Positions 685 through 29,329 of a stretch of 64,000 nucleotides of DNA are shown in pieces. Each line of letters opens with the position of its first letter. Position 1 is the stretch's first letter. The stretch comes from Leucoraja ocellata. Lineage: Eukaryota. The notes under the pieces are model-generated. The model was given only the letters and a program-made list of their open reading frames with translations, had not been told where the DNA came from and did no database searches. The position numbers and the translations under genes are program-made. The DNA lies in NCBI GenBank assembly GCA_036785375.1, contig JAWMAR010000070.1:3906001-3970000 (forward strand), written 5' to 3'.

Positions 685-721
685 TCAGTGGAGACGACAA
701 GTCAATCGCTGCGAAACGTAC

Positions 722-1966: not shown

Positions 1967-2033
1967 CTGAGGGGAGAAACTTTCAGCTGGAGAGAAAATG
2001 AACTGTTTAATGGAAATAGATACATTTTGAAGA

Positions 2034-3374: not shown

Positions 3375-4292
3375 AGACATTCACCGCCGCCAATGCTTTC
3401 CAACGCCCTGACTGAGGACAGAGGACGGACGAGTTACGGGTCCATTAACGGAGAGCGGGTCCATTAACGGAGAGCGTTAGTAGCGTGACAACGCACACCG
3501 CCAGATTCGGGGAATGTTTCTTCCCAGCTGTTATCAGACATCGGAATCATCCTCCCATAACCAGAGAGCAGTGCTGAACTATCTACCTCTTTGGTGACCC
3601 TCGGACTACCCTTGATCGGACTTTGCTGGCCTTACCTTACACTAAACTTTATTTCCCATTCATGTGTGTAAGATGATCGATTGTAATCATGCATCTGGCA
3701 GGTTAGCATGCAACATAAAGCTTTTCTCTGTACCTCGGTACACGTGACAATAAACTGAACTTGGATTTCAGCAGGACTGGGCCGTGGATCCGAGAACGGA
3801 TGGAGAGAGTGTTGGGAGTGGGTGGATAGAGCGAGGACAGTGGTTCAGTCTCAGACTCCGGGGAATTGTTGGGTTTGCGACAGAGTTGAGATGGACAAAT
3901 GCAGGGAATATTTGAACTGACACAATGAGACCTCAATCCTGACTTCCACCTCAGTTGTAAACACATTTTGTTAGTGTAGAATTAACTTCCTGGTGATGTT
4001 GGAACCTCTGTCCTTCGGTCCAGGTGTCTTGGAGTATCTGCTCCAAATACATTCGCTATTTAATGCCTATAAACTACCATCAGGATGCAATTAGACCTAG
4101 TGTTAGCGGTGGTTAAACTACGAACATAGTCTAGATATTCAAATGTGATATCAGATCCGTCACCACAATGCACTGAGTTCCATCTCGCCCATTACATGTC
4201 TACACACACTTAACCATCTCTGCTGTAGAAAGGGTGCACGGGACCCCAACCTACGTTGATCATTGGAATATCAAGATCTGGCTTTCACTCAC

Positions 4293-4329
4293 CCGGCAGC
4301 GAGGCGATGAGAAGAATGGGAATCCACAT
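4293..4329 (-). CDS. Gene A leader exon (signal peptide MWIPILLIASLP)
   Basis: 37-bp ATG exon ending phase 1 at G|GTGAGT; joins V exon to give MWIPILLIASLPVSGALW; conserved at 22404-22440 and 54978-55014. Confidence 0.88.
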
Positions 4330-7720: not shown

Positions 7721-8333
7721 TAAAAATTAGTTGCAGATCGGAAATGAAATCTGCAGATGTTGGATGTGCTTAGCGCGTCAGTCAGCGTCTGTGCAGAGAA
7801 AAATAAGGCTAATAGTCAGAACAATGCCGTTGCATAATTTGGGTCTGATGGGATAGCATAGTCTGAAAGATTAATTGAATGCCTTCCCAAATCGCCTTTA
7901 ATGTATGGCAACAAGAGGAATATCCAGCAGTCTAATCAAAACAAATTAGACAAACCGTTTATTGACAACAACCATTTATTAAGAAGCATTCTGTTGCATT
8001 ATTATTCATTAATCTGTGAAAAAAAATCTAGGAAATTGTATGCATATAATATAGTTTAACAGAGGATAAAACTCTGAAGCAGCAGAAACCACGCAAAGGT
8101 TAAAACAGTAGTTCGAAGCTGACGAAAGAAACCTTGGAAGAGGTGGCAAAAATTAAGATGGTGCAAGCTAGGAGTCTTCATTGTAATTGGTGGGTCGAGT
8201 GGCGAGGTTCTGTGTCATCGCGTCTCTGCAAAAGACAATGTGAAGTCATCAGACAGACTGACAGTGGGAACCACGCTTTATTTGTCCCGGCCACTCCCAA
8301 CACATTGCTGTCTGCAAGATGCTAACCCACGAA

Positions 8334-8474
8334 TTAGTTAATCCCATGCAAACGAACCCACACCGGGCACAGAAATCCACCCTGCACGCGTACAACCTGA
8401 CAGAACCTCGTGATATCATCAACATAGAGATTTGGTTTAACTTCAGGATATGAAAACGTGCACGATTTTTGTTT
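8334..8474 (-). CDS. Gene B putative terminal (cytoplasmic) exon, KQKSCTFSYPEVKPNLYVDDITRF...GIN*
   Basis: CAATAG acceptor, phase 0 matching the TM exon, 46 codons to TAA, AATAAA about 50 nt downstream (plus-strand TTTATT 8277-8282). Confidence 0.55.
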   Translation of the reverse strand, partial: KQKSCTFSYPEVKPNLYVDDITRFCQVVRVQGGFLCPVWVRLHGIN

Positions 8475-8869
8475 CTATTGATGGACAGGATATTTGAAAG
8501 CATTAATGGAAACCGTTTGGAAACACTCGGCGAAGAGAAGGGATTGCTTTGGGCGAATCCCTTCTGGTGAATCTATGGATTTCATTGCCACAGGAGGCTG
8601 TGGAGGCCAAGTTAATTCACACCGGAGATGCTGCCTGTCCCGCTGAGCTACTCCAGCATTTTTGTATCTGTCCAAATTAATTGATATTTTTAAGGCGGAG
8701 ATTTTCATTTTCTTGATAAATAAGGATGTCAGTGGTTACGGGGAGAAGGCAGGTGAATGGGATCGAGTGAAGGATAGATCAGCCGTGATTGGGGGCCGAT
8801 TAGATATGATGGGATGAATGGCCTAATTCTGCTCCTATAATTTATGAACATGATGACAATACAACCTAC

Positions 8870-8960
8870 CTTAGAGCCTCTTGTGAACACCGCGGTTGAG
8901 ATACTCCAGATCACAAGCAGGAGAAAGAACATCCAGCGCCCCATTTCCCATGAGATGTAA
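8870..8960 (-). CDS. Gene B transmembrane exon with Arg (SYISWEMGRWMFFLLLVIWSISTAVFTRGSK)
   Basis: 91-bp exon, polypyrimidine CCCAG acceptor, AAG|GTAGGT donor, phase 2 to 0; conserved at 27204-27294. Confidence 0.85.
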
Positions 8961-10576
8961 CTGGGCAAAGGGCAAGAAATACGGAGTCAATGGGAGGAAA
9001 CGAGACGGTTAATCTTTGAAGCATTTACCTGTTATTTGCTTCATAATCTTGATGAAGAGGAGCGGGGCGAAGCGGCAGCGTCAGTGGAGACCATCTTTGT
9101 AAAAGAACGGGTGTGGGACTGGGGGAGGCGGGGGGGGGGGGGGGGGGGGACAATATATGATCACCAATTGTTGACCTCATTGCTGGGGCATGGCTACAAG
9201 ACTGGGAATGAGAGACTACGCGGTTAAATGGATTCAGAGAAGACAGACAAATAAGTCATGAGTCGGGACAGTGAATACAAAACAGTGGACACAAAATGTT
9301 GGAGAAACACAGCGGGAGAGGCAGCATCTCTCTGGAAAGAAGGAATGCGTGAAGTTCCGGGTCGAGACCCTTCTTCAGACCAAGAGTCACGGGAGAGGGA
9401 ACTGTGGATGTGGAAGGATGCAAAGAACAGTGTGATATCCTGGAAGAAAGAAAATGCAGCTGCAAGGAAGTTTATAATAAAATCCATTTGGATAGGAATA
9501 ATAAAACGGATCAATTCCAATGGTGGATGGGAGATGTGCAATAAAAATGGAAACAGATGAGGCCAATTAATAAAATTAATTAAAAATGATTATACATAAT
9601 CTCACACCCTCGATACTTCGTGGGTCAACGCGGTAGGTGTGTGGATGGAGGAATTGTGCTCGAAAAACCGGTTAAAGGTTCGCTCATAACGGCGTGGCTT
9701 TCATGAACATTTGCTAACGCAAGTATAACACAAGAGTGTGATAGAAAGTCAGATCTATTTGAATTGTGATAAGATAAACAACAAAACGTTCCCACTTTCA
9801 TGACTATATTATGATTGAATATTTAATGGTTTCAAGTATCAACGAGTAAGAGAGAGTCAGTTAACTCATTTTGCTGTATTCGGATGAGGTGAGTGATGTA
9901 GCAATCATGTTGAATACTGCAGGGAGCGCTCTCTGAAAAGCATCAAATGGAGGAACTTGTTCTCATCATCCAAGCATGTACACAACACAATGAGATGTAC
10001 ACCAGTGCGATTCCCCCTCTGATGAGTTAACTAATAACTGGTTTGTAAGTTATATTTATTGTATTAAATAATATTTAATAGATACGTTTATATTTGGTCA
10101 GGCTTGAAACTTGTACAACAATTGGTTATGCTTCGTGACATTTAGGTTCATTGGATCAAAGACCCATAGAGAAACATAGTATAGAAACAGGCCATTTCCG
10201 TCAACTGCATTCACATGATTCCTGTGTCAATCCTATTTTTATTTCCCTCACTTGCTCATCAACTACCACCCCCACCCCCACCCCAGCAATTCTTCACAGA
10301 TTCAGCCACTCTCCTGTACACATGGGGCAATTTACAACTGGCTCATCTTTGGGAGCTGGGAGGAAACTGGAGCACTTGAATGAAACCAACACAATTAAAG
10401 GCAAAACATGCAGACCACGCACAGACAGCTCCTAATGAACCAATGTCGTGGCGTTGTGAGACTGTGGCTCAACACTCTCACGCATTTAATGCCAGTTTCT
10501 CCCAATTAAAGCATTCCCCAATCAAAACACCAGCAAATAGTACATTGTAACTTTCATTGGAAACAGAGCATTTTAC

Positions 10577-10625
10577 CTTGCAGAGTAATTGGATGGTATC
10601 GAATTTTCACAATAACATTCAAGAC
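10577..10625 (-). CDS. Gene B stalk exon (GLECYCENSIPSNYSA)
   Basis: 49-bp exon, CCAACAG acceptor, AAG|GTAAAA donor; phase 1 to 2 exactly bridges the C2 and TM exons; conserved at 29330-29378. Confidence 0.8.
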
Positions 10626-11849
10626 CTGTTGGAACATGAAATAAAAGTCAGTTTCACTGCTTTTCACTTGCAGTTTAACAAGTAGCTATGATTTTCCGAT
10701 GCAAGCAGTTGATAGGCTTAACAGACAGGGCAATGCTTCTTCTGTGTGATTTGCAGCAAATGGGAGATGTTATCATGACAAACAGGAGTGCTGGTAACAA
10801 CTCTGGCTCCAGGTGTAGATGGCACGGTGGCGCAGCGGTAGAGTTGCTGCCTTACAGCCAGAGGCACGGGTTCGATCCTGACCACGGATGCTGTCTGCAC
10901 GGAATTTGTACCTCCTCCCTTTGACCGCGTGGGTTTCTACAAGTGCTCCAGTTACCCCACAGTCTGAACTCTTGCAAGTGTGTCGGTTAATTGGCTTCTG
11001 TAAATTTTCCCAAATGGAACTAGGATACTGGTGATTACTGGACGTTGTGTGCTCAGTGGGACGAAGAACCTGCTTCCACGATGTATCCACAAATTAATCA
11101 AAAGGGTCCAATTTCACTTGAGAGGAGTATTGCTTGGGATGAAACATTACAGTGATGGGGAGGGGTTGGATAGGCGTTTTATAAAATTCCATGCAGAACG
11201 GGTGAGGACGGGAGGATCTATTACAGGTGTGCAAAACTATGAGCAGCGTAGATAGGGTATTTTTGGAACATTTTACACGACAGATATGTGTAAAAGTGGA
11301 GAACATATGGGTACGTTAAGGAGCAGGATGTTTCAAGGGTATAAATAAATATTTTTAAACCGAGAAGATAGAGGTACCTGAATTGCCTCAATGGACGAGG
11401 TGCTGGTAAGTGGGATGAGTATTGATAGTACTGAATGGTCAACATTAATACAGTGACCCAAATGCGATACCGTCGTCTAGGAGTTAATTGTGGGCACATT
11501 TACTGATAATTTCTGATCCCTTCACATATTTGAGTGTCGGTCATGTGGAGATGATGGAAAGTGAAAATGCTTGGACTGATGTCACTACAAACCTAGTTTA
11601 AAGCTGTGTGAACATAAGAGGCAGTTCTAGCCGGGAAGCTGGTCTACACCAGCACTGGGAAATCTATTTATGGAGCCCAACAACCAAGTATTGACAAATG
11701 GGCCATAATTCCATCATGAATTATGGGGTGAAGAGGGGAAGATAGATCAGCCATGATTGAATGGTCTATTTCTGCTTCTATCACATGTGATTTTATGAAC
11801 CACCCCACCCCCACTTCCCCTTCTTCTCCCCATTCCCTCCACTACTTAC

Positions 11850-12170
11850 CAGTGCCGTTGATTTTCACCAGGAAACTACAGGGCGCGTCACTGCTGGAGA
11901 TGGACACGTTGACCATTTCACTGGATTTTGATCCATGTTGATTTGAGGCGGTGCAATAATATTGATGGTGCTGGTGTTTGAAGGATTGGCAATGTAGATC
12001 CAGGATATTGTTGTCTGAGATCTTTGAATCCCCAGATGGGGTCTTTTCATACCAGGTATAGCTAATGGGAAGGGATCCCCGGACCGACTCACAGGACACT
12101 GTCACTGAGCCCCCGAGACAATAGACATCGGCTGGTGACAGACACCCGAGCACAGGAACAGACACGGGTT
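11850..12170 (-). CDS. Gene B exon C2b: Fc-receptor-like C2-type Ig domain
   Basis: 321-bp open phase-1/1 exon; EPVSVPVL..GGSVTVSCESVRGSLPISYTW..YYCTASN..G|GTAAGT. Confidence 0.9.
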
Positions 12171-13052
12171 CTGTGGGAAAGGAGCAAACAGTCAGATACT
12201 GAGTGAACATCTGAAAATCAAACACTCGCCAATATCCACCATTTCTGGATCTTCGCCAGAGCCGCCAGGTTGGAATCGGACCCATCCATCTGCACGGAGT
12301 CATAGAGGCATATAGTGTAGAAGCAGGCCAACATGTCCATCCACACTAGTTCCACCTGCCCTTGCTTAGCCCATAAGCTTCCAAACGGAAGAGACCGTGC
12401 ATTTACTCGATCTATTCGTCGCATGATTTTGTAGCTGCCATAAGATCATCCCTCATCTTCCTGCTCTCCCAGAAATAAAGTCCTAGTCTGCTCAATCCCT
12501 CCCTGGAGTTCAGGCACTCAAGTCATGGCAGCATCCTTGTAAATCTTCTCTGCACCCAATCTTACTTGATAGCATCTTTCCTATAACATGGTGATGAATA
12601 CTGACCACAGAGCAGACATATCATGAGACAATCTTCGATTCTCTTTTCCATTACAGGAATTGCCAGCAGGAAAAAGGGAGCATTGTTTATTTAACTGTCG
12701 GACCCATCCCATCTACATAGATTCGTAGAGTCATACAGTAGAAACTTCGACCTAACTTGCCCGCGCTGACCAACACGCCCAATCTACACTAGTTCCACCT
12801 GTTCTTTCTTGGCCCTTAACCCTCTAAACATATCCTATTCATGTAACTGTCCAATATTTTCTGAAACGGTACGATAGTACCTGCCATAACTACTTCCGTC
12901 GGCAGTTCGTTCCATGGACCTACCAACCTTTGTGTAAACACGTTACTCGCCAGGTTCCTGTTAAATCATTCCCTCCTGATATTAAAACTATGTCCTCCGG
13001 TTCTCGATTCCCCTACTCTGGGCAAAAGACTGTGTATTTACTCGATCTATTC

Positions 13053-13937
13053 CTCGCGTGATTTTTGTGATTTTTGAAAAATATTAATAAATATTTTTAT
13101 TAGAATCAATGTACAGTAGTATAAACCGTGTTTTACATATTACATTTCGTGTACAACTTCTTGTTTTAAATTTATTAATAGAAAAGTAACAGAAGCATAA
13201 AAGAGGAGAGAGAAAGTTAAGTAAAGTAGTGATATTGATAGTTCGTGAAAGAATAGATAGAAAGAACCCGTAAAGATATAAAGCCGTAAAAAAAACGTGA
13301 ACCCCCCCCCCCCGAAAAATAAATACATAAATTAGTATTTTTATTATTTTTATTAGAATCAATGTACAGTAGTATAAACCGTGTTTTACATATTACATTT
13401 CGTGTACAACTTCTTGTTTTAAATTTATTAATAGAAAAGTAACAGAAGCAAAAAAGAGAAGGAGAGATAAAGTTAAGTAAAGTAAAGTTAGCGAAGGAAT
13501 AGATAGAACGAACCCGTAAAGATATAAAGCCGTAAAAAAACGTGAAACCCCCCCCGAAAAATAAATAAATTAATTAATAAAAACAAATAAAATATACAGA
13601 ATAAAATAAAATAATAAGAAAACAAAACAGAAAAAGAATAAAAGGGAGAAGGGATATGCCTGCTTCATGTCTTTCCACACCCCTCACCCAGATCTGAACA
13701 GTTAACATTTCAGACATGCTTGAAATCCACATTTGTTAGGTGGGAGTCTGGTGCACAGTTCTGGTCGCCGGGGGAGTTCGTTGTTCCAGAATTTGAGTAT
13801 ACGTTTTTTTGCTGTTATCAAGCCATGGTTAAGGAGAGAATTTTGGAACGAAATCAGCTTAGAGCCGGCTTCCATTGTTCCAAAAATAATCAATTCTGTG
13901 TTGGGGTCCAATTTTATTTTAAACTCGCATGATTTTT
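13053..13937 (-). mobile_element. L1-clade 3' fragment with about 14-bp TSD and internally duplicated 3' UTR
   Basis: IIFG...QNSLLNHGLITAKKRILKFW matches the L1 C-terminus at 42345-42848; CTCGCRTGATTTTT at 13053-13066 and 13924-13937; empty site in gene C near 31410. Confidence 0.75.
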
Positions 13938-14637
13938 TACCTGCAATAAAATCACCCCTCATCCTCCTGCGCTCCAAGGAATAAAGCCCTAATCTGCTCA
14001 ACCCCTCCCTGTATACCAGGCCCTCAAGTCATCGCAACATTCTTGTAAGTCATCTCTGCTCCTTCTCCTCACAATCAATTTACCAGATTTATACATCTCT
14101 TTGTCTCTCCACCCTCCCAGCCGCCAGAACTACCACGTCTGCCACTTTACCACTACCACTGCAGCACCATCTCTCTTTGTTTTACAATTCCAGCATCTGC
14201 AGTTAATCTTCTTTTAATCTGAAACTCTGCTTTTAATCTGAACATTCAAACGCCTCATTAGTACAACAGTATCAACAACTTTTTAATTTCCTTGCATAAA
14301 ATTGTTGATGGTGATACTGTTGCACTATTAAGGTGTGTGAATGGCGGTATTGTAGAATAGTGTGTAGGGAGCGAATGGGAAAGTGGAATAACATAGAACT
14401 AGTGTGACCGGTGATCGCTAGGTGGTGTGGACTCGGTGGGCCGAAGGATCCGTTTCCATGTTACATTTGTAAACTATTACTAAATATCCGGGCGAACATT
14501 TTTCTGTAAACTCTACAAACTGTTCACATATTTTGTTTTATAAAGCGGCGACCAGAACTGTGCACCAGACTCCCACCTAACAAATGTTTTGCCCGTTGCC
14601 AAAGTGGAGACATCAAGTCACTCACTGACAAACCTAC

Positions 14638-14955
14638 CTTCAGATACTTGGAGATATACTTTAAATGTTGGTTCGCCAGGTGTAGTAATTCCACATCTGT
14701 ACCATCCTGTATCTCCAGAGTGAAGATCCTCCACAGTCACAGTAAATATTCCTCGTGCCGGGTTATCTGTGATTGACACTGTTCCGTTCTGTCCATGTTT
14801 CCCATTTGTTTCCACTACATGTGTACACTGGCGACTTGTCTCACGGCACCAGTATTTTGTGTGTGAGCGGTACACTGCTGCATAGTGACAATCGATTGTG
14901 ATCGCTCTTCCCACAACCCCTCTTACTTCGCTCTCAGCCCACAGTGCACCTGAAA
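14638..14955 (-). CDS. Gene B exon V4: CD300/pIgR-type Ig V domain
   Basis: 318-bp open phase-1/1 exon; KYWCRETSRQC..ITTPGEPTFKVYLQVSE|GTAGGT. Confidence 0.92.
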
Positions 14956-16153
14956 CTGAAGGAAACATCTTTCATAAATTGAAGAGCAAAATTAGCCTTT
15001 CACAAACATATACATTAGAGTATAATGTACAGGGGAGTCCGCCCACTCAATTTCTTAACTCTGTTGAATTACACCTAGATTGCGATGAGAGACAGATACT
15101 ATACACCGTCCCTCACCATCTGCACAGGTCGTTCCAAAGCGCTTCCCAGCCAATGTGGGCGTGAATCGTGAAGAATGATGTATTGAACACGGAGCCTCTT
15201 GCAATTGGAAGGCGCTGTCTTGGGAATCTTGGTCAGTTGCTGCAGTGCATCGTGCAGATGGTGCAAACTGCTGCTGCTCTGCATCAGCGGGCGAGGTTGA
15301 GGATGGGGTGTCTATCATGCGCGACTCTGGATCATGACAAACCAAACACAAGTGTTCGGCGAAATTGTAGCCTAGGCCAGTGCTTCTTAAACTGATGAAT
15401 GGTTCACCCAAGGGCGAATGAAATTATTTTGGGGTAAATTAGTTAATTTATGTTTTTTGCTCATGTGACAAAATCAATTATCTATAAAATTATGCACAAA
15501 GGAAAATACGATGATAATAGCCAAAAGAACATAAGAACATTTAGTGGAGGGTGAATTAAATTTTGTAATAAAGACTCAAGGGCGAATGACACTGTAATAG
15601 TTTAAGAAGAACTGGCCTTGTATAAAATTGGTCTCGCTGATGTAAACCATTCACACCCTCTTCTGGACTTCCAATCTGAGCGTCTCCACACCTACAGGGA
15701 AGTTCTTTTCAAAATTATCTTTGACAAAAGTAAGGGGTATACTTGATGGAGTGACGGCCAAGTAGATTCCAATTTAATTTTGTGAGATTACTGGAGTTTA
15801 ACACAAATTAACAGAGTTAAAATCATGAAATTGGACATCCTTGGTTATAACTGATGATGGATCCAAACATAATGAATTTGGTTTCTTTCTCTGTCTCAAA
15901 GTGCGGCAGCCAGAAAATAATTTTGATGGAATGCACTCAACCCGCAGGTATTTCTCTCATTTGCTGACATTTCTCACCAACTCCCAGGTGAAAACAACAG
16001 GCAATCATTTACCAGTCCCCCAAACAAACTCTCGCATTTTACACCATGAGCTCCCGGTGGCTGCAATGACGCCGTCTGCAAATAACAAGCAATCCATGAA
16101 CATCATCACAAGGCGAATAGCAGCAGGTTCAGGGACACGAGAAGAACACTCAC

Positions 16154-16474
16154 CTGCATTGTTCATTTCTGTCACATAACTGCACGTTCCTGCTCCTTTG
16201 AAGACTTTCACGTTGAGTATTTCACTGGATTTTGTCCCACGATTATTTGAGGCTGTGCAGTAATATTGACGATATTGACCTCCGAGGATTTCACAACTCA
16301 GATCCAGTTGATTGCCAGACACGATCGTTGAAACCCAATGCTCGTTCTTCTCACACCATGTGTAACGGATGGGAAGGGATCCACGGACAGACTCACACGA
16401 CACTGACACTGAGCCTCCGAGACGTGAGGCATTTGCTGGTGACAGATATCTGAGCACAGGAGCAGACATGGGTT
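16154..16474 (-). CDS. Gene B exon C2a: Fc-receptor-like C2-type Ig domain
   Basis: 321-bp open phase-1/1 exon; EPMSAPVL..SCESVRGSLPIRYTW..YYCTASN; CCCACAG acceptor, GTGAGT donor. Confidence 0.9.
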
Positions 16475-16884
16475 CTGTGGGAATGGAGCAAACATTCAGT
16501 CACCTGTATGAACAGTTAAAAACCAAACACGTGCTAAATCTCAGCAGCCCTTTATCTCAGCCCGAACCGTCCGGTTGATATCTCACCGGCTCATCTACAT
16601 CTCTGTGAGTGTGCGAAGCCCAAAAACCGAAGAAGGTTAGAGTTATAGAGAACCGAAAGATGCCCATCACAACAGCTCATTCATGCCGACCAACATGTCT
16701 TTCTAGGCCATTTCCATATGTTCACGTTCTACCTTTATCACTCGCAATTATCACAATCTACGCAAATATCAAAAAAATATTTTAAATGCTGCTATTCTAA
16801 CTGTCTTAACACCTTCCCCTGGCAGCAGCTTCCATATACATATCACCCAATGTGTGGAAAATGTTGTCCCTTAGAACATATGTT

Positions 16885-17250
16885 GGGATGCAGGGGAGGA
16901 GGTCCGGGACAGAAAGATCAGTTTGGGAATGGGAGGGGGAATAAAGGTGTTTTGCAATCGGGATGTAACGAAGGCCGAGGAACACTGTGCGGAATTGTTC
17001 AGCGAAACGATCGCCGAGCCTGCGTTGGGTCTCCCATCTACTGTATCCGCTTGTTCACACCTGGAACAGCGGATATAGTAGAGGAGGTTAGAAGAGATGC
17101 AACTGAACCTCTGACTCACCCGGAAATACTGTTGGAGCCTTGGACGGAGTAGAGGGGGATACATAGGGACTGGTGTTGCATATCCTGCAGTTATAGGGGA
17201 AGATACCTGGGGACGGGGTGGGAAAGGACGAGTTGACCAGGGAGTTGGGG
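16885..17250 (-). mobile_element. Penelope-like GIY-YIG endonuclease remnant
   Basis: FRVSQRFSCISSNLLYYIRCSRC resembles the N-terminus of PLE GIY-YIG domains; longer copy at 34440-35220. Confidence 0.7.
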
Positions 17251-17549
17251 AGTCTGTCGGATTATTAGTTTGAGTCGGAATGCAAACCTCTGACAGGGTG
17301 ACATTTCATACAGTTCAGACGCAGGGAAATGTGCTGAGTATCCCACTTGAAGTGGGTGGCCGCTCAGTGGGACAGAGCCCGCACTGGGTGAGAGCAACAT
17401 GAGTGGGGTTTCCCGACCCCCGCCCGCTCCCCGCAGGTCTCTGCACTGCTGCGGAGCCTCGGGATATCGGTGCTGCCCTGACCCTTCCCGGAGAGAACAT
17501 AGATTAGGCATTTCAGTGGAGACGTCAAGTCAATCGCTGCGAAACGTAC

Positions 17550-17870
17550 CGTCAGATATTTGGAGATGTACGTTAAATATTGGACGATCGCCAGATGTTG
17601 TAATTCCACAGCTGTACCATCCTGTATCTCCAGAGTTAAGATCCTCCACAGTCACAGCAAATATTCTTAGTGCCGGTATATCTGTGATTGACACTCTTCC
17701 ACTACGTCCGTGTTGCCCATTTGTTTCCACTAAAACTGTACACGGGTGATTCCTCCCACGGCACCAGTATTTTGTGTATGAGCGGTACTCTGCTGCATAG
17801 TGACAATCGATTGTGATCGCTCTTCCCACAACTCCACTTACATCCCTCTCTGCCCACACTGCATCTGAAA
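17550..17870 (-). CDS. Gene B exon V3: CD300/pIgR-type Ig V domain
   Basis: 321-bp open phase-1/1 exon; KYWCRGRNHPC..ITDIPALRIF..DTGWYSC. Confidence 0.92.
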
Positions 17871-18440
17871 CTGAGGGGAGAAACTTTAAGATGGACCAGT
17901 TGACCAGGGGGTTACGGAGGGAACGGTGTCTTCGGAAAGCGGTGGAGATGGAAAGGTGTGGCTACTTATCTAGTTATGGGATCCCGTTGGAGGTGGCGAA
18001 AATGTTGGAGGATTGTATGTTGTGTGCGACGGCTGATGGGGTGAAAGATGAGTTTATTCTGCTTACCACCGGGGAAATGTCCGGGTGGAGAGGCTGGCTG
18101 GCTGCCGGGCGGTGGGTGGACAGTGGCTGTTGGGGGTGAGGGCGCATTGACGGGGCAGAGGGAGAGAGGGAGAGAGAGCGCGGGATGGGGAGGGAATGAC
18201 TGATCGCTGAGGTGGGAGCGGGAAGCGGTATGAACTGCACCGGGAGGACTGATGAGCTCTGGGGACTGATATTTTTTTTTAACTCTCCGGGTATTCAGAC
18301 CGCGAGCAACACTTGTTCCTCACTGTGGTATTATAAGTTTGAGTCTGAATGCAAACTTCTGACGGGTGACATTTCATACAGTTCAGAGGAAGGGAAATGC
18401 GCTGAGTATTCCACTTGAAGTGAAAAGTGAAGTGAAAGTG

Positions 18441-18859
18441 AAGTTAAATGCCACTTTTCAAGAAAGGAGCAAGAGAGAAAACTGGAAATTACAGACCAGT
18501 TAGCCTGACTTCGGTGGCGGGAAAGATGCCGGAGTCAATTATTAAAGAGGTAATAATGGGGCATTTGGATAGCAGTAAAATAATTAGTCCAAGTCAGCAT
18601 GGATTTATGAAAGGAAAATCATGCCTGACTATCTTCTGGAATTTTTTGAGGATGTGGCAAGTAAAATGGACGAAGGTGAGCCAGTGAATGTAGTGTATCT
18701 AGACTTCAATAAATCCTTTGATAAGGTTCCGCACGGGAGACTGGTGACTAAATTGAGAGCGCATGGAAGGGTGTTGACGTGGATAGGAAATTGGTTGGCA
18801 GACAGGAAGCAAAGAGTAGGAGTGAGCGGGTCCTTTTCAGAATGGCGGGAAGTGGCGAG
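18441..18859 (+). mobile_element. CR1 RT fragment (paralogous to 270-684)
   Basis: PLFKKG..GNYRPVSLTS..SQHGFMKGKSC. Confidence 0.9.
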
Positions 18860-18896
18860 TCAGTGGAGACGACAAGTCAATCGCTGCGAAACGTAC

Positions 18897-19217
18897 CGTC
18901 AGATACATGGAGTTCTACGGTAAACATTGGGAGGCCGTTAGATGTTGCAATTCCACATCTGTACCAGCCTGTATCGCCAGAGAGAAGATCCTCCACAGTC
19001 ACAGTAAATATTCCTCGTGCCCGGTTATCTGTGATTGACACTCTTCCACTCCTTCCGCGTAGCCCAATTGTTTCCACCATATCTGTACATTGGCGATTCT
19101 GCACACGGCACCAGTATTTTGTGTGTGTGCGGTACTCTGCTGCATAGTGACAATCGATTGTAATCGCACTTCCCACAACTGCTCTTACATACGGCTCTCC
19201 CCACACTGCACCTGAAA
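18897..19217 (-). CDS. Gene B exon V2: CD300/pIgR-type Ig V domain
   Basis: 321-bp open phase-1/1 exon; KYWCRVQNRQC..IATSNGLPMF. Confidence 0.92.
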
Positions 19218-19819
19218 CTGAAGGGGAGAAACTTTCAGATGGAGAGCAAATGAACAGTTTAGTGGAAATAGATACATTTTCAAGATTCCATGAAAGAAAA
19301 CTTAAATAGTTCCATGATGTGTCATATTGCTTCACGGCCAATGTCTCCTGTCTGAAGTGCAGGCAGTGCTGTTATTGTACCATTGTGTCAGTGTTCTGTC
19401 CCCGGGTCAGTACAATTAGGGTTCACTTCCCACTCCAGATCCCTGAGCAGAAACTGGGCTGGGATCGCAGTGCGGTACTGAGGGAGCGCGGCAGTTTTGC
19501 AGGAGCTGCCTTTCAACAATCCCAGGCGGTGCCCGGCCTCTCACCCCACGAAAGACCCTACTTTGCTATTTCATTGGCGGTGACAATTTCTTCACAGCAG
19601 TTATCAGGCATCTGAATCATCCTACCACGCCCAGAGATCTGTCCTGAACTCCCATCTACCTCTTTGACGACCCTCGGACCGCCCTTGATCGGACTTTGCT
19701 GCCTTTACCTTACACTAAACGTTATTTAATATTCATGTATCTATGCACTGTAGGAGAATCGATTGTAATCCTGTATTGTCTTTCTGCTGGAGACGTCAAT
19801 CAATCGCTGCGAAACGTAC

Positions 19820-20134
19820 CGTCAGATACTTCGAGATGAACGTTAAATATTGGATGGTCGGCAGATGTTGTAATTCCACATCTGTACCATCCTGTATCTC
19901 CATCCTGAAGATCGTCCACAGTCACAGTAAATATTCCTCGTGCCGGGTTATCTGTGATTGACACTCTTCCATTCCGTCCGTGTTGCTCATTTGTTTCCAC
20001 CAACACTGTACATTGGAGACTCCTCCCACGGCACCAGTATTTTGTGTGTGAGCGGTACTCTGCTGCATAGTAACAATCGATTGTGGTCGCTCTTCCCACA
20101 ACTCCTCTTACATCCCACTTTGCCCACAGTGCAC
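19820..20134 (-). CDS. Gene B exon V1: CD300/pIgR-type Ig V domain (in frame only from the second acceptor)
   Basis: CCCTCAG-TTCAG has lost one T; the distal AG gives 320 bp (frameshift), the proximal AG gives 315 bp (open). Confidence 0.8.
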
Positions 20135-20206
20135 CTGAACTGAGGGGAGAAACTTTCAGCTGGAGAGAAAATGAACTGTTTAATGGAAATAGATACATTT
20201 GAAGAT

Positions 20207-20843
20207 TACTTCTTCATATAAACTACTTCATCGCCCCCAATGCATTCAGAACTCTGCAGCCCGGATCATCACCCGCACCAGATCATCGGACCACATCACA
20301 CCCATCCTCACTCAGCTCCACTGGCTCCCTGTGCACCACCGGATTAACTATAAGAATTTACTGCTGACCTTCAAAGCCCTACCGCACCTTGCCCCCCAAT
20401 ACCTCTCTGACCTGCTGCCACCATACACTCCTTCCCGGTCACTTCGTTCCTCCTCAGCTGCAATTTTAACTGTCCCCACATTTAGACTCAGCACAATGGT
20501 TGCCAGAGCCTTGGCTGCTCTGCCCCACGTCTCTGGAACACTCTCCCACCTCCCTTCCGTCACCTGGACACTATCGATCAATTCAAATCACAACTCAAAA
20601 CACACCTGTTTAGATTAGCATACCCGACATAACTTCCACCATGTTCACCCTGATTTTAATTACTTAAAATATTTTGTGTATTTTTTTGTTTTTTGTTTTT
20701 TTGGCAACTTAATTTTAATATTGATAATTGTGTTGTGATTTTATGTCCTGTAAGGTGTCCTTGGGTGTCCAGAGAGGCGCCAGCAAATAAAAATGCATTA
20801 TTATTATTAATATTATTATTATTATTATTATTATTATTTATTA

Positions 20844-20885
<42 letters not shown>
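20207..20885 (+). mobile_element. L2 3' fragment with (TTA)n tail
   Basis: Same L2 peptide as 2034-2602; (TTA)n run about 20797-20885; absent before V1 of gene E. Confidence 0.88.
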
Positions 20886-20887
<2 letters not shown>

Positions 20888-21226
20888 GAAAGAAAACTTA
20901 AATCGTTCCATGGTGTGTCATATTGCTTCACGGCCAATGTCTCCGGTCTGAATTGCAGGCAGTGCTGTTATTGTACCAGTTGTGTCAGTGTTCTGTTCCC
21001 GGGTCAGTACAATTAGGGTTCACTTCCCACTCCAGATCCCTGAGCAGAAACTGGGCTGGGATCGCAGTGCGGTACTGAGGAGCGCGGTAGTGTTGCAGGA
21101 GCTGCCTTTCAACAATCCCAGGCGGTGCCCGGCATCTCACCCCACAGAAAGACCCCACTTTGCTATTTAATTGACGGTGCCGCCGGCTACGCTGCCAACA
21201 TTCATCTCTCAACCGACACTGGGCCG

Positions 21227-21489
21227 GACCCGTGTTTTTTTTTAATTATCAAATTATTTATTCAATTATTAAAAATAATATTTACACTACATAAAACGAG
21301 AACCCAGCACCATAATACAAGACAAACAAATATACTACATAAACTACTATACAACTATGTTACAATACTTGTCAAGGTGTATTCAACCACAGGCGGTGCC
21401 CAGATGTGCCGGAAATCCCCCAGGTGCCCGTGGACAGCGCCTGGTGCTTCTCGAGACCCACCCGGACGCGGGAAAGCCGACCCGTGTTT
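21227..21489 (-). mobile_element. Tx1-like 3' fragment with 11-bp TSD
   Basis: GACCCGTGTTT at 21227-21237 and 21479-21489. Confidence 0.7.
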
Positions 21490-22403
21490 AGACATTCACC
21501 GCCGCCAATGCTTTCCAACGCCCTGACTATGGACAGAGGACGGACGAGATACAATAAAGCGGGTCAATTAACGGAGAGCGTTAGTGGCGTGACAACGCAC
21601 ACCGCCAGATTCGACGAATGTTTCTTCCCAGCTGTTATCGGACATCGGAATCATCCTCCCATAACCAGAGCAGTGCTGAACTATCTACCTCTTTGGGACC
21701 CTCGGACTACCCTTGATCGGACTTTGCTGGTCTTACCTTACACTAAACGTTATTTCCCATTCATGTATCTATGCGCTGTAAGAGGATCGATTGTAATCAT
21801 GTATCCGGCAGGTTAGCACGCAACAAAATGCTTTTCTCTGTAACTCTGTACACGTGACAATAAACTGAACTTGAATTTCAGCACGACTGGGCCGCGGATC
21901 CGAGAGCGGATGGAGAGAGAGTTGGGAGTGGGTGGATAGAGCGAGGACAGTGGTTCAGTCTCAGACTCCGGGGAATTGTTGGGTTTGCGACAGAGTTGAG
22001 ATGGACAAATGCAGGGAATATTTGAACTGACACAATGCGTCCACAATCGTGACTTCCACCTCTGTTGTAAACACATTTTGTTAGTGTAGAATTAACTTCC
22101 TGGTGATGCTGGAACCTCTGTCCTTCGGTCCAGGTGTCTTGGAATATCTGCTCCAAATACATTCGTTATGTTATGCCTATAAACTACCATCAGGATGCAA
22201 TTAGACCACGTGTTAGCGGTGGTTAAACTACGAACATTGTCTAGATATTCAAATGTGATTTCAGATCCATCACCACAATGCACTGAGTTCCATCTCGCCC
22301 ATTACATGTCTACACACACTTAAACCATCTCTGCTGTGGAAAGGGTGCACGGGACCCCAACTAACATTGATCATTGGAATATCAGGATCTGGCTTTCACT
22401 CAC

Positions 22404-22440
22404 CCGGCAGCGAGGAGATGAGAAGAATGGGAATCCACAT
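22404..22440 (-). CDS. Gene B leader exon (MWIPILLISSLP)
   Basis: 37-bp ATG exon, G|GTGAGT donor, phase 1. Confidence 0.88.
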
Positions 22441-22568: not shown

Positions 22569-25357
22569 GCGAGCCAGCAGCAGCTCGACACGATGTAGTG
22601 TGAAAGGCTCAGGGGTATATCTAGCAATGGTTGGGTCAGATGATCACAGAGTCATACGTCACGGAAACAGGCCCTTCTACCCAACTCGTTAGACCAATAT
22701 GCTCATCTAAGTTAGTCAAATTTGCCCACGCTCGACCATATCTCCCCAAACCTTCCCTATCCATGGACCTGGCCAAGTGCCCGTTCCATGTTGTTATTGC
22801 AGCTGCTTCAGCACTTCGTCAAGTGTGATGTATCCGTAAGGATGGAGCGGCGGTTAACTCTGTACTCAGAGTCTGTTAACACTGAACTGTGGTGGAAATA
22901 TTGACAGACAAAAAAATGCAGGAGCAACTCTGCGGGCCCGTCAGCACCTCTGGAGAAAATGGATAGATGACGTTTCGGGTCGGGAACCTTCGTGTAAACA
23001 ATGATACGTGTATAAAATATGACAATTAGAAGAGTAAAAATTAGGTTCCACTGTACTGTTTTTGTACTGTATTAACTTCTAATAAAATAAACAAAAAAGA
23101 AAGAAGAGTAAAAACGTCTAAGATGTGTACACTTCCGGATCATTCCCATTTGATGATTTTGTAAGTGGACCGGCAGACCAAAAACATGGAACTTTTGTTT
23201 TGGCATATTGCTGAAGTGATACACTTAGTGAAGTTAAAGCAAGGTAGAATATGCACGGTGAATTGAATTGTTAACTTGTCTTCTTCACAAGTGCTAATAA
23301 ATTATCAGAGTTGTGGTCATGTACATTCCATTGGTTGATTTTGTACATCTGCTTGCAACGATTTCATTCTGTAGGCAACTAGTTGCATTATAATATGACT
23401 TAATATCTGCTGCGGGCTATCGTTCTGGATGTGTTACTTTCAGGGGAACAGTGCAGTTTATTCGGGTTGTGTCCGTCAGTGGCAGTGTTGTGTATCACGT
23501 GGTATCGGTGTAACACACTGATGTGTTCGCCACTGATGTTAGCTGAGCGCTGGCGACCCTCAGTAAATGATCTTTTGTTGGGAGCTATTTCCTGTTTACT
23601 TGCCCAACTAAAACACTGCAGAGAGGAACCGACGATGCAGCAAAACAATTTAATCTGTCTTTATTCGCCATGACCCATGACTTCTGCAAACACTGCTCAG
23701 CAATCAGTGTTACACCGAGCTGCACGCAAGATGCGGTTCAGAGATACGAATCTACACACCTTGTTTCAGCAGCGCGAGCAAAGTGTCAGCACGGCAGAAC
23801 AATTCAGTGTAAAGGGAGAAATTACTGTTTGATCAAATTAGATTAAAGTACATTGCAAGTCAGCACCACCGCTAAACACAACAGTGGCATCGACCCGCAA
23901 TGTCACCCGTTCTTTCCCTCTAGTGATGCCGCCCTTCCGCGAGTTGCTCCAGTATTTTGTGTATATCTGTGGCATCTCAGACCATTTATCTCTCATTATC
24001 TGAGAGGCACTTTGGGATGTCCTGCAGTGGGGAATGATCCAACTCAAGATCATTCCTCCCATTAGACCATTAACAAGCTCAATTTGAACGGGCCAGGCAG
24101 CATCAATGTGACCACAGAATCTTCAAGTATCTCTGGCTATTCAGCACCCCTCCCTGACCTGGGGTTTGTGAGTTCAAAGCAGTCTCTGGTCTCATTTCCG
24201 TGTCTCTCCGCTTACCGTGTGGAGAATATTTATCTTTGTCAGTGGGACATTTCAGCAATCTTTGAATCTTTCCGGAGTTTATGGCGGTTACTCCGTTATT
24301 GCAGGTCACCATTTTGTATTCGCAAAACAACATCCTTCATAGTTCTTTCATGGGCGGGGCTACAGTCACGAGTTAGACTAAGGAAAGCAACACAATGTAT
24401 TTTGCAGTTTCACACCCCGCGCTTTGCAAGCTGCAACTCAACCATTTTGTTCTGCACAAGAATAGACGTTCCACTAGTTTAGTTTGGTTTAGTTTAGCTT
24501 AGTTGGAGATACAGCGAAGAAAACGGCCCTTCGGCCCACCGAGTCCACACTGACCAGGAAATCCCCGCACATTAACACTACCCCACACACACTGGGACGT
24601 TTACAATTATAACATGCCAATTGGTGGGGGGGGGGGGGGGGGGTTGTGTGAGTGGGAATGCAAGGGTTACTTGAAGTTAGCAGAAGTCAACGTTCACACC
24701 GCTGGGTATAACCAGCCCAAGCGAAATATGAGGTGCAGTTCTCAAATTGTGCGGCAACTTAATCTGACAATGGAGGATGCCCAGGGACAGTAATGTCAGT
24801 GTGGGAATGGAGGGGAGGAGTTACCGTGGCTAGCGACCGGGTTACAGGTAGGGCGGACTCACGGAGTTGTTCAGCGAAACGATCGCAGTCTAATCAAAAC
24901 AAATTAGACAAACCGTTTATTGACAACAACCATTTATTAAGAAGCATTCTGTTGCATTATTATTCATTAATCTGTGAAACAAAATCCAGGAAATTGTATG
25001 CATATAATATAGGTTTAACAGGAGTATAAAACTCTGAAGCAGCAGAAACCACGTAAAGGTTAAAACAATAGTTCGAAGCTGACGAAGTAAACTTGGAAGA
25101 GGTGGCAAAAATTAAGATGTGCAAGCTAGGAGTCTTCATTGTAATTCGTGGGTCGAGTGGCGAGGTTCTGTGTCATCGCGTCCTCTGCAAAAGACAAATG
25201 TGAAGTCAAATGTGAAGACTCTCTGACAGTGGGAACCACGCTTTATTTGACCCGACCACTCCCAACACATTGCTGTCTGCAAGATGCTAATCCAAGAATT
25301 AGCTAATCCACTGCCAACGAACCACCACCGGGCACAGAAATCCACCCTGCACGCGTA

Positions 25358-27152
25358 TCCTAAGGAAGACATAAATATTTGCCGGAAATAGCAGGGACCG
25401 GGGTCCAAATGAGATGGGGAAATGAGTGAAATCCAGGTTAGCCGGAAGTGATGTTAGGTAAATTGAATGGATTAAAGCCGATAAATCCCAGGGCCAGATA
25501 GGCTGCACCTCAGAGTGCTTAAGGAAGTAGCCCCAGAAATAGTGGATGCATTAGTGATAATTTTTCAACCCTTTAGATTCTGGAGTAGTTAGTGTTCTGA
25601 GGATTGGAGGGTAGCTAATGTAACCCCACTTTTTAAAAAGGAGGGAGAGAGAAAAACGGGGTATTACCGACCAGTTAGTCTAACGTCGGTAGTGGGGAAA
25701 CTGATAGAATCAGTTATTAAAGATGGGATAGCAGCACATTTGGAAAGTGGTGAAATCATTGGACAAAGTCAGCATGGATTTATGAAAGGTAAATCATGTC
25801 TGACAAATCTTATAGAATTGTTCGAGGATGTAATTAGTAGAGTGGATAAGGGGAGAGGATGTGTTATCTCTGGACTTTCAGAAGGCTTTCGACAATGTAC
25901 CACAAAAGAGATTAGTATACAAACTTTAAAGCACACGCATTGGGGGATCAGTATTGATGTGGATAGAGAACTGGCTGGCAGACAGGAAGAGTAGGAGTAA
26001 ACGGGTCCTTTTTCACAATGGCAGGCAGTGACTAGTGGGGTACCGCAAGGCTCAGTGATGGGACCCAGCTATTTACGATATATATTAATGATTTGGACGA
26101 GCGGATTGAATGCAACATCTCCAAGTTTGCGGATGACACGAAGCTGGGGGCAGTGTTAGCTGTGAGGATGCTAGGAGGCTGCAAGGTGACTTGGATAGGC
26201 CTGGGTGAGTGGGCAAATGCATGGCAGATGCAGTATAATGTGGAAAATGTGAGGTTAATCCACTTTGGTGGCAAAACAGGAAAATAGGCTGGGTGAGTGG
26301 GCAAATGCATGGCCAGATGCAGTATAATGTGGATAAATGTGAGGTTATCCACTTTGGTGGCAAAAAACAGGAAAGTAGACTTATATCTGAATGGTGGCCG
26401 ATTAGGAAAGGGGGAGATGGAAACGAGACCTGGGTGTCATGGTACACCAGTCATTAAAAGTAGGCAGGCAGGTGCAGCAGGCAGTGAAGGAAGGCGAATG
26501 GTATGTTAGCATTCATAGCAAAAGGATTTGAGTATAGGAGCAGGGAGGTTCTACTGCAGTTGTACAGGGTCTTGGTGAGGACCACACCTGGAGTATTGCG
26601 TACAGTTTTGGTTTCCTAATCTGAGGAAAGACATTCTTGCCATAGAGGGAGTACAGAGGAAGGTTCACCAGACTGATTCCCTGGGATGTCAGGGCCTTTC
26701 ATATGAAGAAAGACTGGATAGACTCGGTTTGTACTCGCTAGAATTTAGAAGTTTGAGGGGGGATTCTTATAGAAACTTACCAAAATTCTTAAGGGGTTGG
26801 ATTAGGCTAGATGCAGGAAGATTGTTCCCGATGTTGGGGAAGTCCAGAACAAGGGGTCACAGTTTAAAGATAAGGGGGAAATCTTGTATGACTGAGATGA
26901 GGAAAACCTTTTTCACACAGAGAGTGGTGAATCTCTGGAAATCTCTGCCGCAGAAGGTAGTTGAGGCCAGTTCATTGGCTATATTTAAGAGGGAGTTAGA
27001 TGTGGCCCTTGTGGCTAAAGGGATCAGGGGGTATGGAGAGAAGGCAGGTACAGGATACTGAGTTGGATGATCAGCCATGATCATATTGAATGGCGGTGCA
27101 AACTCGAAGGTCCGAATGGCCCTACTACTGCACCTATTTTCTATGTTTCTAT
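25358..27152 (+). mobile_element. CR1 LINE ORF2 3' half with CTATGTTT tail, replacing part of the gene C tail exon
   Basis: SQHGFMKGKSCLTNL, SKFADDTKLG, FFTQRVVNLW motifs; homology to gene B stops at 25357 and resumes at about 27151. Confidence 0.9.
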
Positions 27153-27203
27153 GGCCTAATTCTGCTCCTATAATTTATGAACAGTGATGACAGTAAACCC
27201 TAC

Positions 27204-27294
27204 CTTTGAGCCTCTTGCGAACACCGCGGTTGAGATACTCCAGATCACAAGCAGGAGAAAGAACATCCAGCGCCCCACTTTCCATGAGATGTAA
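27204..27294 (-). CDS. Gene C transmembrane exon with Arg (SYISWKVGRWMFFLLLVIWSISTAVFARGSK)
   Basis: Intact 91-bp exon, CCCAG acceptor, GTAGGG donor. Confidence 0.8.
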
Positions 27295-29329
27295 CTGGGC
27301 AAAGGTCAAGAAATACAGAGTCAATGGGAGGAAAACGAGACGGTTAATCTTTGCAGCATTTCCCTGTTATTTGCTTCATAATCTTGGTGAAGTGGAGCGG
27401 GGCGAAGCGGCAGCGTCAGTGGAGACCATCTTTGTAAAATAACGGGTGTTGGACTGGGGGGGAGGCGGGGGGGACAACATATGATCACCAATTTTTGACG
27501 TCATTGCTGGGGCATGGGCTACAAGACTGTGAATGAGAGACTACGCGGTTAAATGGATTCAGATAAGACATATAAATAAATCACGAGATTACACAAAAAA
27601 GCTGGAGAAACTCAGCGGGTGCAGCAGCATCTATGGAGCGAAGGAAATAGGCAACGTTTCGGGCCGAAAACCCTTCTTCAGACTAAATAAGTCATGAGTC
27701 GGGGCAGTGGGAATACAATGAGTTGGGGCAGTGAATACAAAACAGATGGACACAAAATGTTGGAGAAACAGCAGGAGTGGCAGCATCTCTCTGGAGAGAA
27801 GGGAATGCGCGAAGTTCCGGGTCGAGACCCTTCTTCAGGACTGAGAGTCACGGGAGAGGGAAACTGTGGATGTGGAAGGATACAAAGAACAGTGTGATAC
27901 CCTGGAAGAAATAAAATGCAGCTGCAAGGAAGTTTATAATATAAAATCCATTGGGATAAGAATAATAAAAAACGGATCAATTCCAATAATGGAAGGGAGA
28001 TGGGCAACAAAAATGGAAACAGATGAGGCCAATTAATAAAATAAATTAAAAAAATGATTATGCTTAATGTCACGCCCTGGATACTTCGTGCATCAACGCG
28101 GTAGGTGTGTGGATGGAGGAATTGTGTTCGAAAAAATCGGTTAAAGATTCCGCTCATAACGGCGTGGCTTTCATGAACATTTGCTAACGCAAGTATAACA
28201 CAAGAGTGTGATTAGAAAGTCAGATATATTTCAATTGTAATAAGATAAATAACAAAGTGTTCTCACTTTCATGAATATATTATGATTGAATGTTTAATGG
28301 TTTCAATTATCAACGAGTAAGAGAGAGTCAGTTAACTCATTTTGCTGTATTCGGTCTGATTCAAGACAATTTTCTGACATTCTGCGCCAGCGACTTTATG
28401 GTGTATGGTCCCCATCAATGACAAGCGGTGGTTGCCCACAAGTGATATCATGGGGAGTGTGGCGTAGCCCATCATTCATAAAGCATTTTCCTATCAGCAC
28501 CACACAAGTGCAAGTCACAGCAAAGCCAAACTGGAAGACTAAGGTTTGGGAACTATATTAATCTCACAGCATGGGATGAGGGTTAGTGATGGAGCAGTCA
28601 TGTTGAATACTGCAGGAGCGCTCTCTGAAAAGCATCAAATGGAGGAACTTGCTCTTATCATCCAAGCATGTACACAACACAATGAGATGTAAACCAGTGC
28701 GATTCCCCTTCTGATGAGTTAACTAATAACTGGTTTGCAAGTTATATTTATTGTATTAAATAATATTTAATAGATACGTTTTATATTTGGTGTCAGGCTT
28801 GAAACTTGTACAACAATTGGTTATGCTTCGTGACATTTAGGTTCATTGGATCAAAGACCCATAGAGAAACACAGTATAGAAACAGGCCATTTCCGTCAAC
28901 TGCATTCACATAATTCCTGTGTCAATCCTATTTTTATTTCCCCCACTTTCTCATCAACTACCACCCCCACCCCCCACTCCCCCCCCTCCCCCCACCCCAC
29001 CCACTCTTCACAGATTCAGCCACTCTCCTGTACACATGGGACAATTTACAACTGGCACATCTTTGGGAGCTGGGAGGAAACTGAATGAAACCAACCAAAT
29101 TAAAGGCAAAACATGCAGATCACACACAGACAGCACCCATTAAACCTATGTCGTGGGCGTTGCGAGACTGTGTTTCTATAGGCTTTGCCACTGTGCATTC
29201 AGATCAATACTCCTCACGCATTTAATGCCAGTGAAAGGAAGGCACAACTTTCCCCCAATTAAAGCATTCCCAATCAAAACACCAGCAATTAGTACATTGG
29301 CAATTTTCATTGGAAACAGAGCGGTTTAC

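Follow-up and report, generated by a model that had tools for sequence, protein, structure and literature searches.

Exon organisation and domain architecture of gene B

The locus analysed here, a window of 64,000 nucleotides from Leucoraja ocellata (contig JAWMAR010000070.1, positions 3,906,001 to 3,970,000), raises the question of whether its minus strand carries a complete activating-type immune receptor, designated gene B, and of the adaptor through which such a receptor would signal. An original prediction had proposed ten exons encoding a leader, six Ig domains, a stalk, a membrane segment with the motif WEMGRWMFF and a tail with two tyrosines. Nine of these exons were confirmed with GT-AG ends and with phases 0-1 for the leader, 1-1 for each of the six Ig exons, 1-2 for the stalk and 2-0 for the membrane exon, in which the motif was located, while the tail exon and the choice of acceptor at the V exons had to be revised (Table 1). 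The splicing as first proposed resulted in an open chain of 738 aa. The corrected model showed 80.8% identity to the MDIR5 protein over 489 aa and the exons of gene B recur in the same order in the paralogues of the surrounding cluster; judged from these two comparisons, the exon chain is real, far beyond chance.

Table 1. Features of gene B, with positions in the window.
Feature	Position	Strand	Remarks
Leader exon	22404..22440	-	ATG at 22440, phase 1 at end; signal peptide begins as in MDIR5
Ig1, V-type (pIgR/CD300-like)	19820..20134	-	frame open only from downstream AG at 20134
Ig1 tandem acceptor	20135..20141	-	private one-base deletion near 20137; upstream AG 5 nt away, out of frame
Ig2, V-type	18897..19217	-	upstream AG; first proposed start 19211
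Ig3, V-type	17550..17870	-	upstream AG; first proposed start 17864
Ig4, C-type (FCRL5-like)	16154..16474	-	
Ig5, V-type	14638..14955	-	upstream AG; first proposed start 14949
Ig6, C-type (FCRL5-like)	11850..12170	-	85% identity to MDIR3 and MDIR5
Stalk exon, phase 1-2	10577..10625	-	MDIR5 stalk matches
Membrane exon, phase 2-0	8870..8960	-	Arg close to outer end; 87% identity to MDIR5
Candidate last coding exon	8178..8225	-	15-aa Tyr-free tail of MDIR5 type, then TGA
Tyr tail first proposed	8334..8474	-	most likely intron; at best minor alternative last exon
Two candidate AATAAA signals	7958..7980	-	starts 7980 and 7963, 3' of last exon

The domain order is V-V-V-C-V-C, with four pIgR/CD300-like and two FCRL5-like domains. 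The V domains gave their best structure matches with pIgR and CD300 (E 1e-18 for single CD300 domains) and all four V exons encode KYWC and a second Cys, consistent with a putative second disulphide; the YWC motif and the second disulphide are described for the CD300/CMRF35 V domain in an excerpt of PMC3031540. The ectodomain predicted as CD300-like is so in its V domains, but as a whole it is a mosaic with FCRL5-like domains, whereas the CD300s, which likewise occur as paired activating and inhibitory genes, carry a single V domain according to the same excerpt (PMC3031540). The predicted fold of Ig6 was a confident beta sandwich (pLDDT 85.5), for which Foldseek returned no match at E<=0.001, the best being CD22. 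The polymeric Ig receptor, pIgR, binds and transports polymeric Ig; the mixed V/C ectodomain and the predicted 15-aa tail argue against orthology of gene B with it.

Gene B is an MDIR5-type receptor

Skate MDIRs (modular domain immune-type receptors) were reportedly described by Cannon and colleagues in 2006 as modular proteins with a varying number of Ig domains drawn from few domain types, and MDIR5 is said to have been classed there as lacking signalling motifs. An excerpt of PMC3031540 presents the MDIRs as a multigene family with activating and inhibitory receptors. On sequence grounds gene B belongs to this family, as a member of MDIR5 type. It is one further copy within a known family, a real gene but an ordinary one. 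Clearnose skate MDIR5 (ABC86800.1; P0042) shares with it the leader, both V and C domain types, the stalk, the Arg-bearing membrane exon and a 15-aa tail, and from Ig5 to the last residue 225 of 273 positions are identical in a gap-free alignment. The two proteins differ in the number of domains, four in MDIR5 (V-C-V-C) and six in gene B, and gene B has two extra Cys, in Ig6 and the stalk, besides an upstream acceptor at Ig1 that is out of frame.

MDIR3 (ABC86797.1; 77% over 568 aa) and MDIR2 (ABC86796.1), also from clearnose skate, have the domain types of gene B but no charge in the membrane segment, and their long tails are of ITIM type; their counterparts in the cluster are its 11 inhibitory-type genes. 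Ig6 showed 85% identity to both MDIR5 and MDIR3 and 68% to MDIR2, while Ig1 was 67-75% identical to the named MDIR proteins; MDIR1 and MDIR4 were absent among the matches listed for the gene B domains.

The last exon and the cytoplasmic tail

The original prediction placed the tail at 8474-8334, an open frame behind an AG, and the end of the gene at an AATAAA at 8282. MDIR5 and the remaining Arg-type homologues match instead an exon that begins at 8225, where a CAG acceptor is found in all 26 Arg-type genes of the cluster and the full 15 aa in 18 of them, and a contig piece from run X1 of a related organism ends exactly at this position. The last exon of gene B therefore most likely starts at 8225 and would encode a 15-aa tail devoid of tyrosine, so that the two tyrosines most likely belong to an intron and the AATAAA at 8282 becomes intronic, better signals lying at 7980 and 7963. 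The stretch 8474-8334 was accordingly rejected as main last exon.

The same stretch might still serve some Arg-type receptors as a real alternative last exon giving a 46-aa tail. Of the 26 copies, 21 keep an AG at the corresponding position, the first Tyr is retained in all 21 copies holding the stretch, and the frame is fully open in 12/26, with pN/pS of 0.55 among these 12; since the copies are recent duplicates, the open frame is inherited. An excess of synonymous changes (25/75 against 0.23 expected, p=0.033) was equalled by a wrong-frame control (p=0.032), with nine tests made. Across the copies there are four nonsense variants and several frameshifts and deletions, the acceptor region is lost in four, and the acceptor is the weakest of the nine scored (10/17 pyrimidines, TAG). 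Neither Tyr sits in an ITIM or ITAM pattern, and the translation had no homologue among 5.8 billion proteins scored, a weak test with so short a query. Taken together, these data make an alternative tail improbable, and the Tyr-free tail is retained in what follows.

The Ig1 acceptor and the integrity of this copy

The open chain first proposed depends on the downstream AG of the tandem acceptors found at V exons. In database proteins the upstream AG is used at 142 of 162 V-domain starts, including 6/6 in MDIR2, MDIR3 and MDIR5, and run X1 yielded contig pieces whose ends, at 17870/17871 and 17550, are the bounds of Ig3 with its start at the upstream AG. At Ig1 of gene B the two AGs are 5 nt apart rather than 6 nt, the sole such case in 116 cluster V exons, and splicing at the upstream AG leads to a stop at codon 23. 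A full-length protein would be possible if the second AG were used at Ig1, if Ig1 were skipped, which preserves the frame, or if the deletion were an artefact of assembly; otherwise the copy may be broken. The downstream AG is probably usable, as the upstream AG is missing in 7 of the 116 V exons and six of these seven are open from the downstream one.

Gene B might also be a null allele or a young pseudogene, in which the deletion is real, the upstream AG is used and translation ends at codon 23; the mechanism discussed below would then be valid for the intact paralogues only. This reading agrees with the general preference for the upstream AG and with the state of the cluster, where 10 of 26 Arg-type genes, gene B included, are missing the leader or some Ig exon or are otherwise defective. 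It is opposed by the probably usable downstream AG, by the intactness of every other exon of gene B and by the distribution of indels. Gene B has six private one-base indels (0.42 per kb, against a median of 0.12 among 29 genes), three of them deletions within about 820 bases, the neighbouring gene C reaches 2.91 per kb, and the CD3zeta membrane exon of the skate genome (L102) also carries a one-base shift. This pattern suggests a local assembly error, and we regard a true null allele as rather unlikely. The gene claimed to be complete is thus intact in its remaining exons, but its completeness is doubtful and hangs on an atypical Ig1 acceptor or an assembly error. Four RNA runs aligned to the whole of gene B were swamped by repeat reads; no spliced read of gene B itself was seen in them, and none of the 15 joints listed (1627 more were present) connects exons.

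A cluster of Arg-type and ITIM-type genes

Gene B lies in a cluster of about 0.8 Mb with 26 Arg-type and 11 ITIM-type genes, interleaved, whose layouts range from V-C to five V-C repeats; nine of the genes share V-V-V-C-V-C. Gene A, the adjoining ITIM gene, agrees with gene B in 104/104, 98/104, 93/104, 98/106, 94/103 and 94/106 residues of the six domains. In a tree of first V domains (30 rows, two broken rows excluded) the Arg and ITIM classes were mixed, with 8 label changes against 8.6 after shuffling. Among paralogues, pN/pS was close to 1 for all exons (0.76-0.93), so that these tests, which were low in power, gave no sign of selection acting on the membrane exon or the last one.

The membrane arginine and adaptor coupling

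The membrane Arg is present in 26/26 Arg-type copies of the cluster. Among the homologues retrieved, the motif W-x-x-x-R-W, followed by 14 residues without other charge, was counted 49 times; none of the 53 ITIM-tailed ones has it, and it is retained in sharks and rays; in an alignment of 24 homologues chosen for the motif, the invariant Arg is not independent evidence. A search with the membrane exon beyond elasmobranchs, uninformative with a 30-aa query, returned four matches, of which two were skate proteins of MDIR type and the other two unrelated repeat proteins.

In mammals, as set out in an excerpt of PMC13107469, the binding of CD89 (FcalphaRI) to FcRgamma uses an Arg close to the top of the CD89 membrane segment together with the two Asp of the FcRgamma dimer; the same Arg-Asp-Asp rule is assumed for NKp30 and NKp46. 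As in gene B, the Arg of these three receptors lies in the outer membrane segment (PMC13107469, same excerpt); their ectodomains differ from that of gene B, and the search with its membrane exon showed homology only within elasmobranch MDIRs. Mouse LMIR8/CLM-6, a CD300-type receptor, is reported in part of PMC5974347 to couple to FcRgamma, but carries a membrane Lys where gene B has Arg. A 2014 survey did not find FcRgamma in cartilaginous fish (PMC4016189); in the skate genome, exon L101 gave its best match with FcepsilonRI gamma (E 1e-10) and has the membrane Asp. For both skate FcRgamma and CD3zeta the analysis covered the membrane exons.

The coupling of gene B to FcRgamma, as originally proposed, is plausible and fits this evidence. 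The claim of an activating-type receptor with an N-terminal membrane Arg fits it likewise. The reading that we favour, with some confidence, is that gene B encodes an MDIR5-type receptor with six Ig domains, a membrane Arg and most likely a 15-aa Tyr-free tail, and that this receptor is predicted to be the activating partner in a receptor pair, associating within the membrane with a dimer of FcRgamma (or CD3zeta). Its V domains would bind a ligand common to the ITIM partners, the Arg would pair with both Asp in that dimer, and the ITAM of the adaptor, not the receptor tail, would carry the signal.

The Arg might instead lie at the interface and fix the position of the helix in the membrane, or the receptor might pair with DAP10, DAP12 or another membrane partner, in which case the short-tailed genes would be decoys, adhesion receptors or receptors signalling via another adaptor. 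The residue stands between two Trp. By a crude count, its distance to the first basic residue on the inner side is 18 residues in 38 of the 48 motif matches, compared with 15 for the Asp of FcRgamma; being three residues further out, it may sit about one turn higher than the adaptor Asp, at the interface. Moreover, the membrane charge of catfish LITR 2.6b is dispensable for adaptor binding according to an excerpt of PMC4810170, so that mammalian charge rules may not transfer, and NKG2D pairs its Arg with DAP10 (excerpt of PMC13107469). The Arg of NKG2D, however, is in mid-membrane, unlike that of gene B, and a DAP10 family search of the skate genome gave no match, a weak result since the exons are short. 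The restriction of the motif to short-tailed receptors and its retention in sharks and rays also speak against this alternative, which we hold to be less likely than pairing to FcRgamma or CD3zeta.

Whether, among the paired receptors of elasmobranchs, the MDIR5 class forms the chief activating arm, with the 26 Arg-type genes of one skate cluster assembling with FcRgamma, appears to us evenly balanced. If true, ectodomains of pIgR/CD300 type were already coupled to FcRgamma by the Arg-Asp-Asp rule in cartilaginous fish. In a literature search with thin coverage of subscription journals we found no paper testing the adaptor of cartilaginous-fish activating receptors. The cluster map, in which 26 Arg-type genes and 11 ITIM-type genes have ectodomains in common, and the skate FcRgamma membrane exon provide a ready pair for the adaptor question, to which an intact paralogue is better suited than gene B itself.

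Gene B Is a Further MDIR Receptor

On the minus strand, gene B contains six Ig exons between leader and stalk, all with GT-AG borders, and these exons, together with the leader, stalk and membrane exons (see the table), retain the phases of the original prediction, a ten-exon chain whose splicing yields an open product of 738 aa; the predicted last exon, however, most likely gives way to one starting at 8225 that matches MDIR5. The domain order is V-V-V-C-V-C, where Ig1, 2, 3 and 5 are V-type (Ig1: Pfam V-set, top structure matches pIgR and CD300) and Ig4 and Ig6 represent a second type, Ig6 showing FCRL5 as top match and a predicted beta-sandwich fold.

A protein search with Ig6 returned 132 matches, and every named one among the 120 listed came from a shark or ray. 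MDIR5 and MDIR3 of clearnose skate shared 85% identity with this domain and MDIR2 of the same species 68%. Leucoraja and Amblyraja proteins reached 88-92% identity, which points to a skate genome. MDIR5 also carries the stalk and Arg membrane segment found in gene B. The MDIRs are described as multigene activating and inhibitory families, likened to CD300, TREM, FCAR and pIgR (PMC3031540). Judged by sequence likeness, MDIR5 in GenBank already covers the family, domain types and membrane segment of gene B, which is assigned as a further member of the known MDIR family and not as a new kind of receptor. The extra Cys pair of Ig6 and stalk could form an additional or inter-chain disulphide.

Features of gene B, its neighbours and candidate adaptors (window coordinates unless prefixed)
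Feature	Position	Strand	Description
Leader exon, gene B	22440-22404	minus	GT-AG ends, phase as predicted
Stalk exon, gene B	10625-10577	minus	GT-AG ends, phase as predicted
Membrane exon, gene B	8960-8870	minus	GT-AG ends, phase as predicted
Extra Cys pair, gene B	Ig6 (11850-12170) and stalk (10577-10625)	minus	Two Cys, absent from MDIR5
Gene A	147-4329 and G000:C70:3893049-3910349	minus	V-V-V-C-V-C, MDIR3-type uncharged membrane exon, tail with three ITIM-like motifs
Gene C	25100-37750	minus	Arg-type, no leader found, all Ig exons broken
MDIR2-type inhibitory remnant	38300-46300	plus	Membrane exon and ITIM tail with a single, broken C exon
Gene D	54978-64000, continues past window end	plus	Arg-type, V-C-V-C-V-C, second V exon with stop
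Three Arg-type genes	G000:C70:3880000-3883425, 4224079-4227522, 4299953-4308082		Leader, membrane and last exons present
FcRgamma membrane exon	L101:1489-1581 (G000:C201)		Cys and Asp intact
CD3zeta-like membrane exon	L102:1504-1606 (G000:C175)	minus	One-base frameshift directly before Asp codon

The Tail Most Likely Lacks Tyrosine

The MDIR5 tail is 15 aa long, and its counterpart starting at 8225 reads RRDDTEPRHSTHQLQ and is Tyr-free. With this exon the gene B model aligned to MDIR5 without gaps through the last residue (225/273 identical from Ig5 on). Its CAG acceptor was present in all 26 Arg-type genes and the complete 15 aa in 18 of them. A contig from X1, a sequencing run from another organism about 90% alike and typed as DNA by the tool, yet with pieces ending at exon borders, aligned to 8042-8225, leaving 34 letters over at the 8225 border. 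Among database proteins with the W-x-x-x-R-W membrane motif, 23 of 49 matches end in MDIR5-like tails of 13-16 aa, six of these (rays) with one Tyr. This comparison makes a Tyr-free, 15-aa MDIR5-type tail the most likely one for gene B.

The tyrosine tail originally placed at 8474-8334 is discarded as the main last exon, since its acceptor was the weakest of the nine scored, a homologue search over 5.8 billion proteins found no match (a weak negative at this query length) and the frame was intact in only 12/26 copies, with four nonsense variants and several indels across copies. That it serves as an alternative last exon is very improbable: its AG is present in 21 copies, open copies gave a pN/pS of 0.55 and a synonymous excess was observed (p=0.033), but a wrong-frame control gave practically the same value (p = 0.032) and the 8225-type exon had no excess.

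The Ig1 Acceptor

In the cluster, 107/116 V exons carry tandem AGs spaced 6 nt, and the upstream one is chosen in 142/162 V starts of database proteins, in 6/6 of MDIR2/3/5 and by the X1 pieces at gene B Ig3. Gene B Ig1 is the sole case among the 116 with a 5-nt spacing, and there the upstream AG leads to a stop at codon 23. The chain earlier called complete escapes this stop solely by taking the downstream AG; the claim holds for that site and fails for the family's usual choice, which would make gene B a null copy. We consider this rather unlikely: seven of the 116 V exons lack the upstream AG and six of them are open, so the downstream site is probably usable, and skipping of Ig1 leaves the frame intact. 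Moreover, the Ig1 deletion may be an assembly error, given the excess of private one-base indels in gene B (0.42 per kb; median 0.12 over 29 genes) and neighbouring gene C (2.91 per kb) and the one-base shift in the CD3zeta-like exon, itself either an assembly error or a broken copy.

Membrane Arginine and Predicted Adaptor Coupling

The membrane Arg was kept in 26/26 cluster copies, its motif occurred in 0/53 ITIM-tailed homologues, and no further charge lies within 14 residues. CD89 is described as engaging the FcRgamma dimer by means of an Arg close to the top of the helix in the membrane and the two Asp of the adaptor, a mode assumed for NKp30 and NKp46, while NKG2D pairs a mid-membrane Arg with DAP10 (PMC13107469). 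By analogy, the V domains of an Arg-type receptor would bind ligand, the receptor would assemble with a gamma or zeta dimer and signal through the adaptor's ITAM, and ITIM partners would oppose this signalling. Against such pairing, counting outwards from the inner basic residue puts the Arg at 18 residues and the adaptor Asp at 15, and, according to PMC4810170, a catfish LITR deprived of its membrane charge still bound adaptors.

FcRgamma coupling by a receptor with a CD300-type ectodomain has a known precedent in mouse LMIR8 (PMC5974347). Our literature search found no study testing MDIR adaptors. The FcRgamma membrane exon in the Leucoraja ocellata genome contradicts, by one exon's worth, a 2014 survey reporting cartilaginous fish to be without FcRgamma (PMC4016189), a point that later studies may since have put right.

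The Receptor Cluster

The membrane exon of gene B had 27 genome matches, all at 3.87-4.57 Mb of contig C70, and 26 Arg-type and 11 ITIM-type genes were counted in 864 kb of this contig. Of these, 16/26 and 10/11 respectively have a leader plus one or more Ig exons and are free of Ig defects, and nine genes have exactly the gene B layout. The cluster follows the usual paired-receptor design. Gene A, which is ITIM-type and adjoins gene B, is likely its inhibitory partner; the two genes do not differ in Ig1, and their remaining five domains are 89-94% identical. In a first-V-domain tree (30 rows; two broken rows excluded) the classes were intermixed, with 8 label changes vs 8.6 in shuffles. Among close paralogues (G000:C70:3.87-4.66 Mb), V exons had a pN/pS of 0.93 and C exons one of 0.82, whole-exon values reflecting either little purifying selection or a mixture with diversifying selection.

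Between the leader and membrane exons of the three Arg-type genes in the table no Ig exons were detected; these are either deletion remnants or genes for tiny membrane peptides. Gene C is either a pseudogene or a region of poor assembly, given its broken exons and 35 private one-base indels, mainly insertions. The MDIR2-type remnant has neither leader nor V exon, and the strand switch of the cluster falls there, likely marking an inversion breakpoint.
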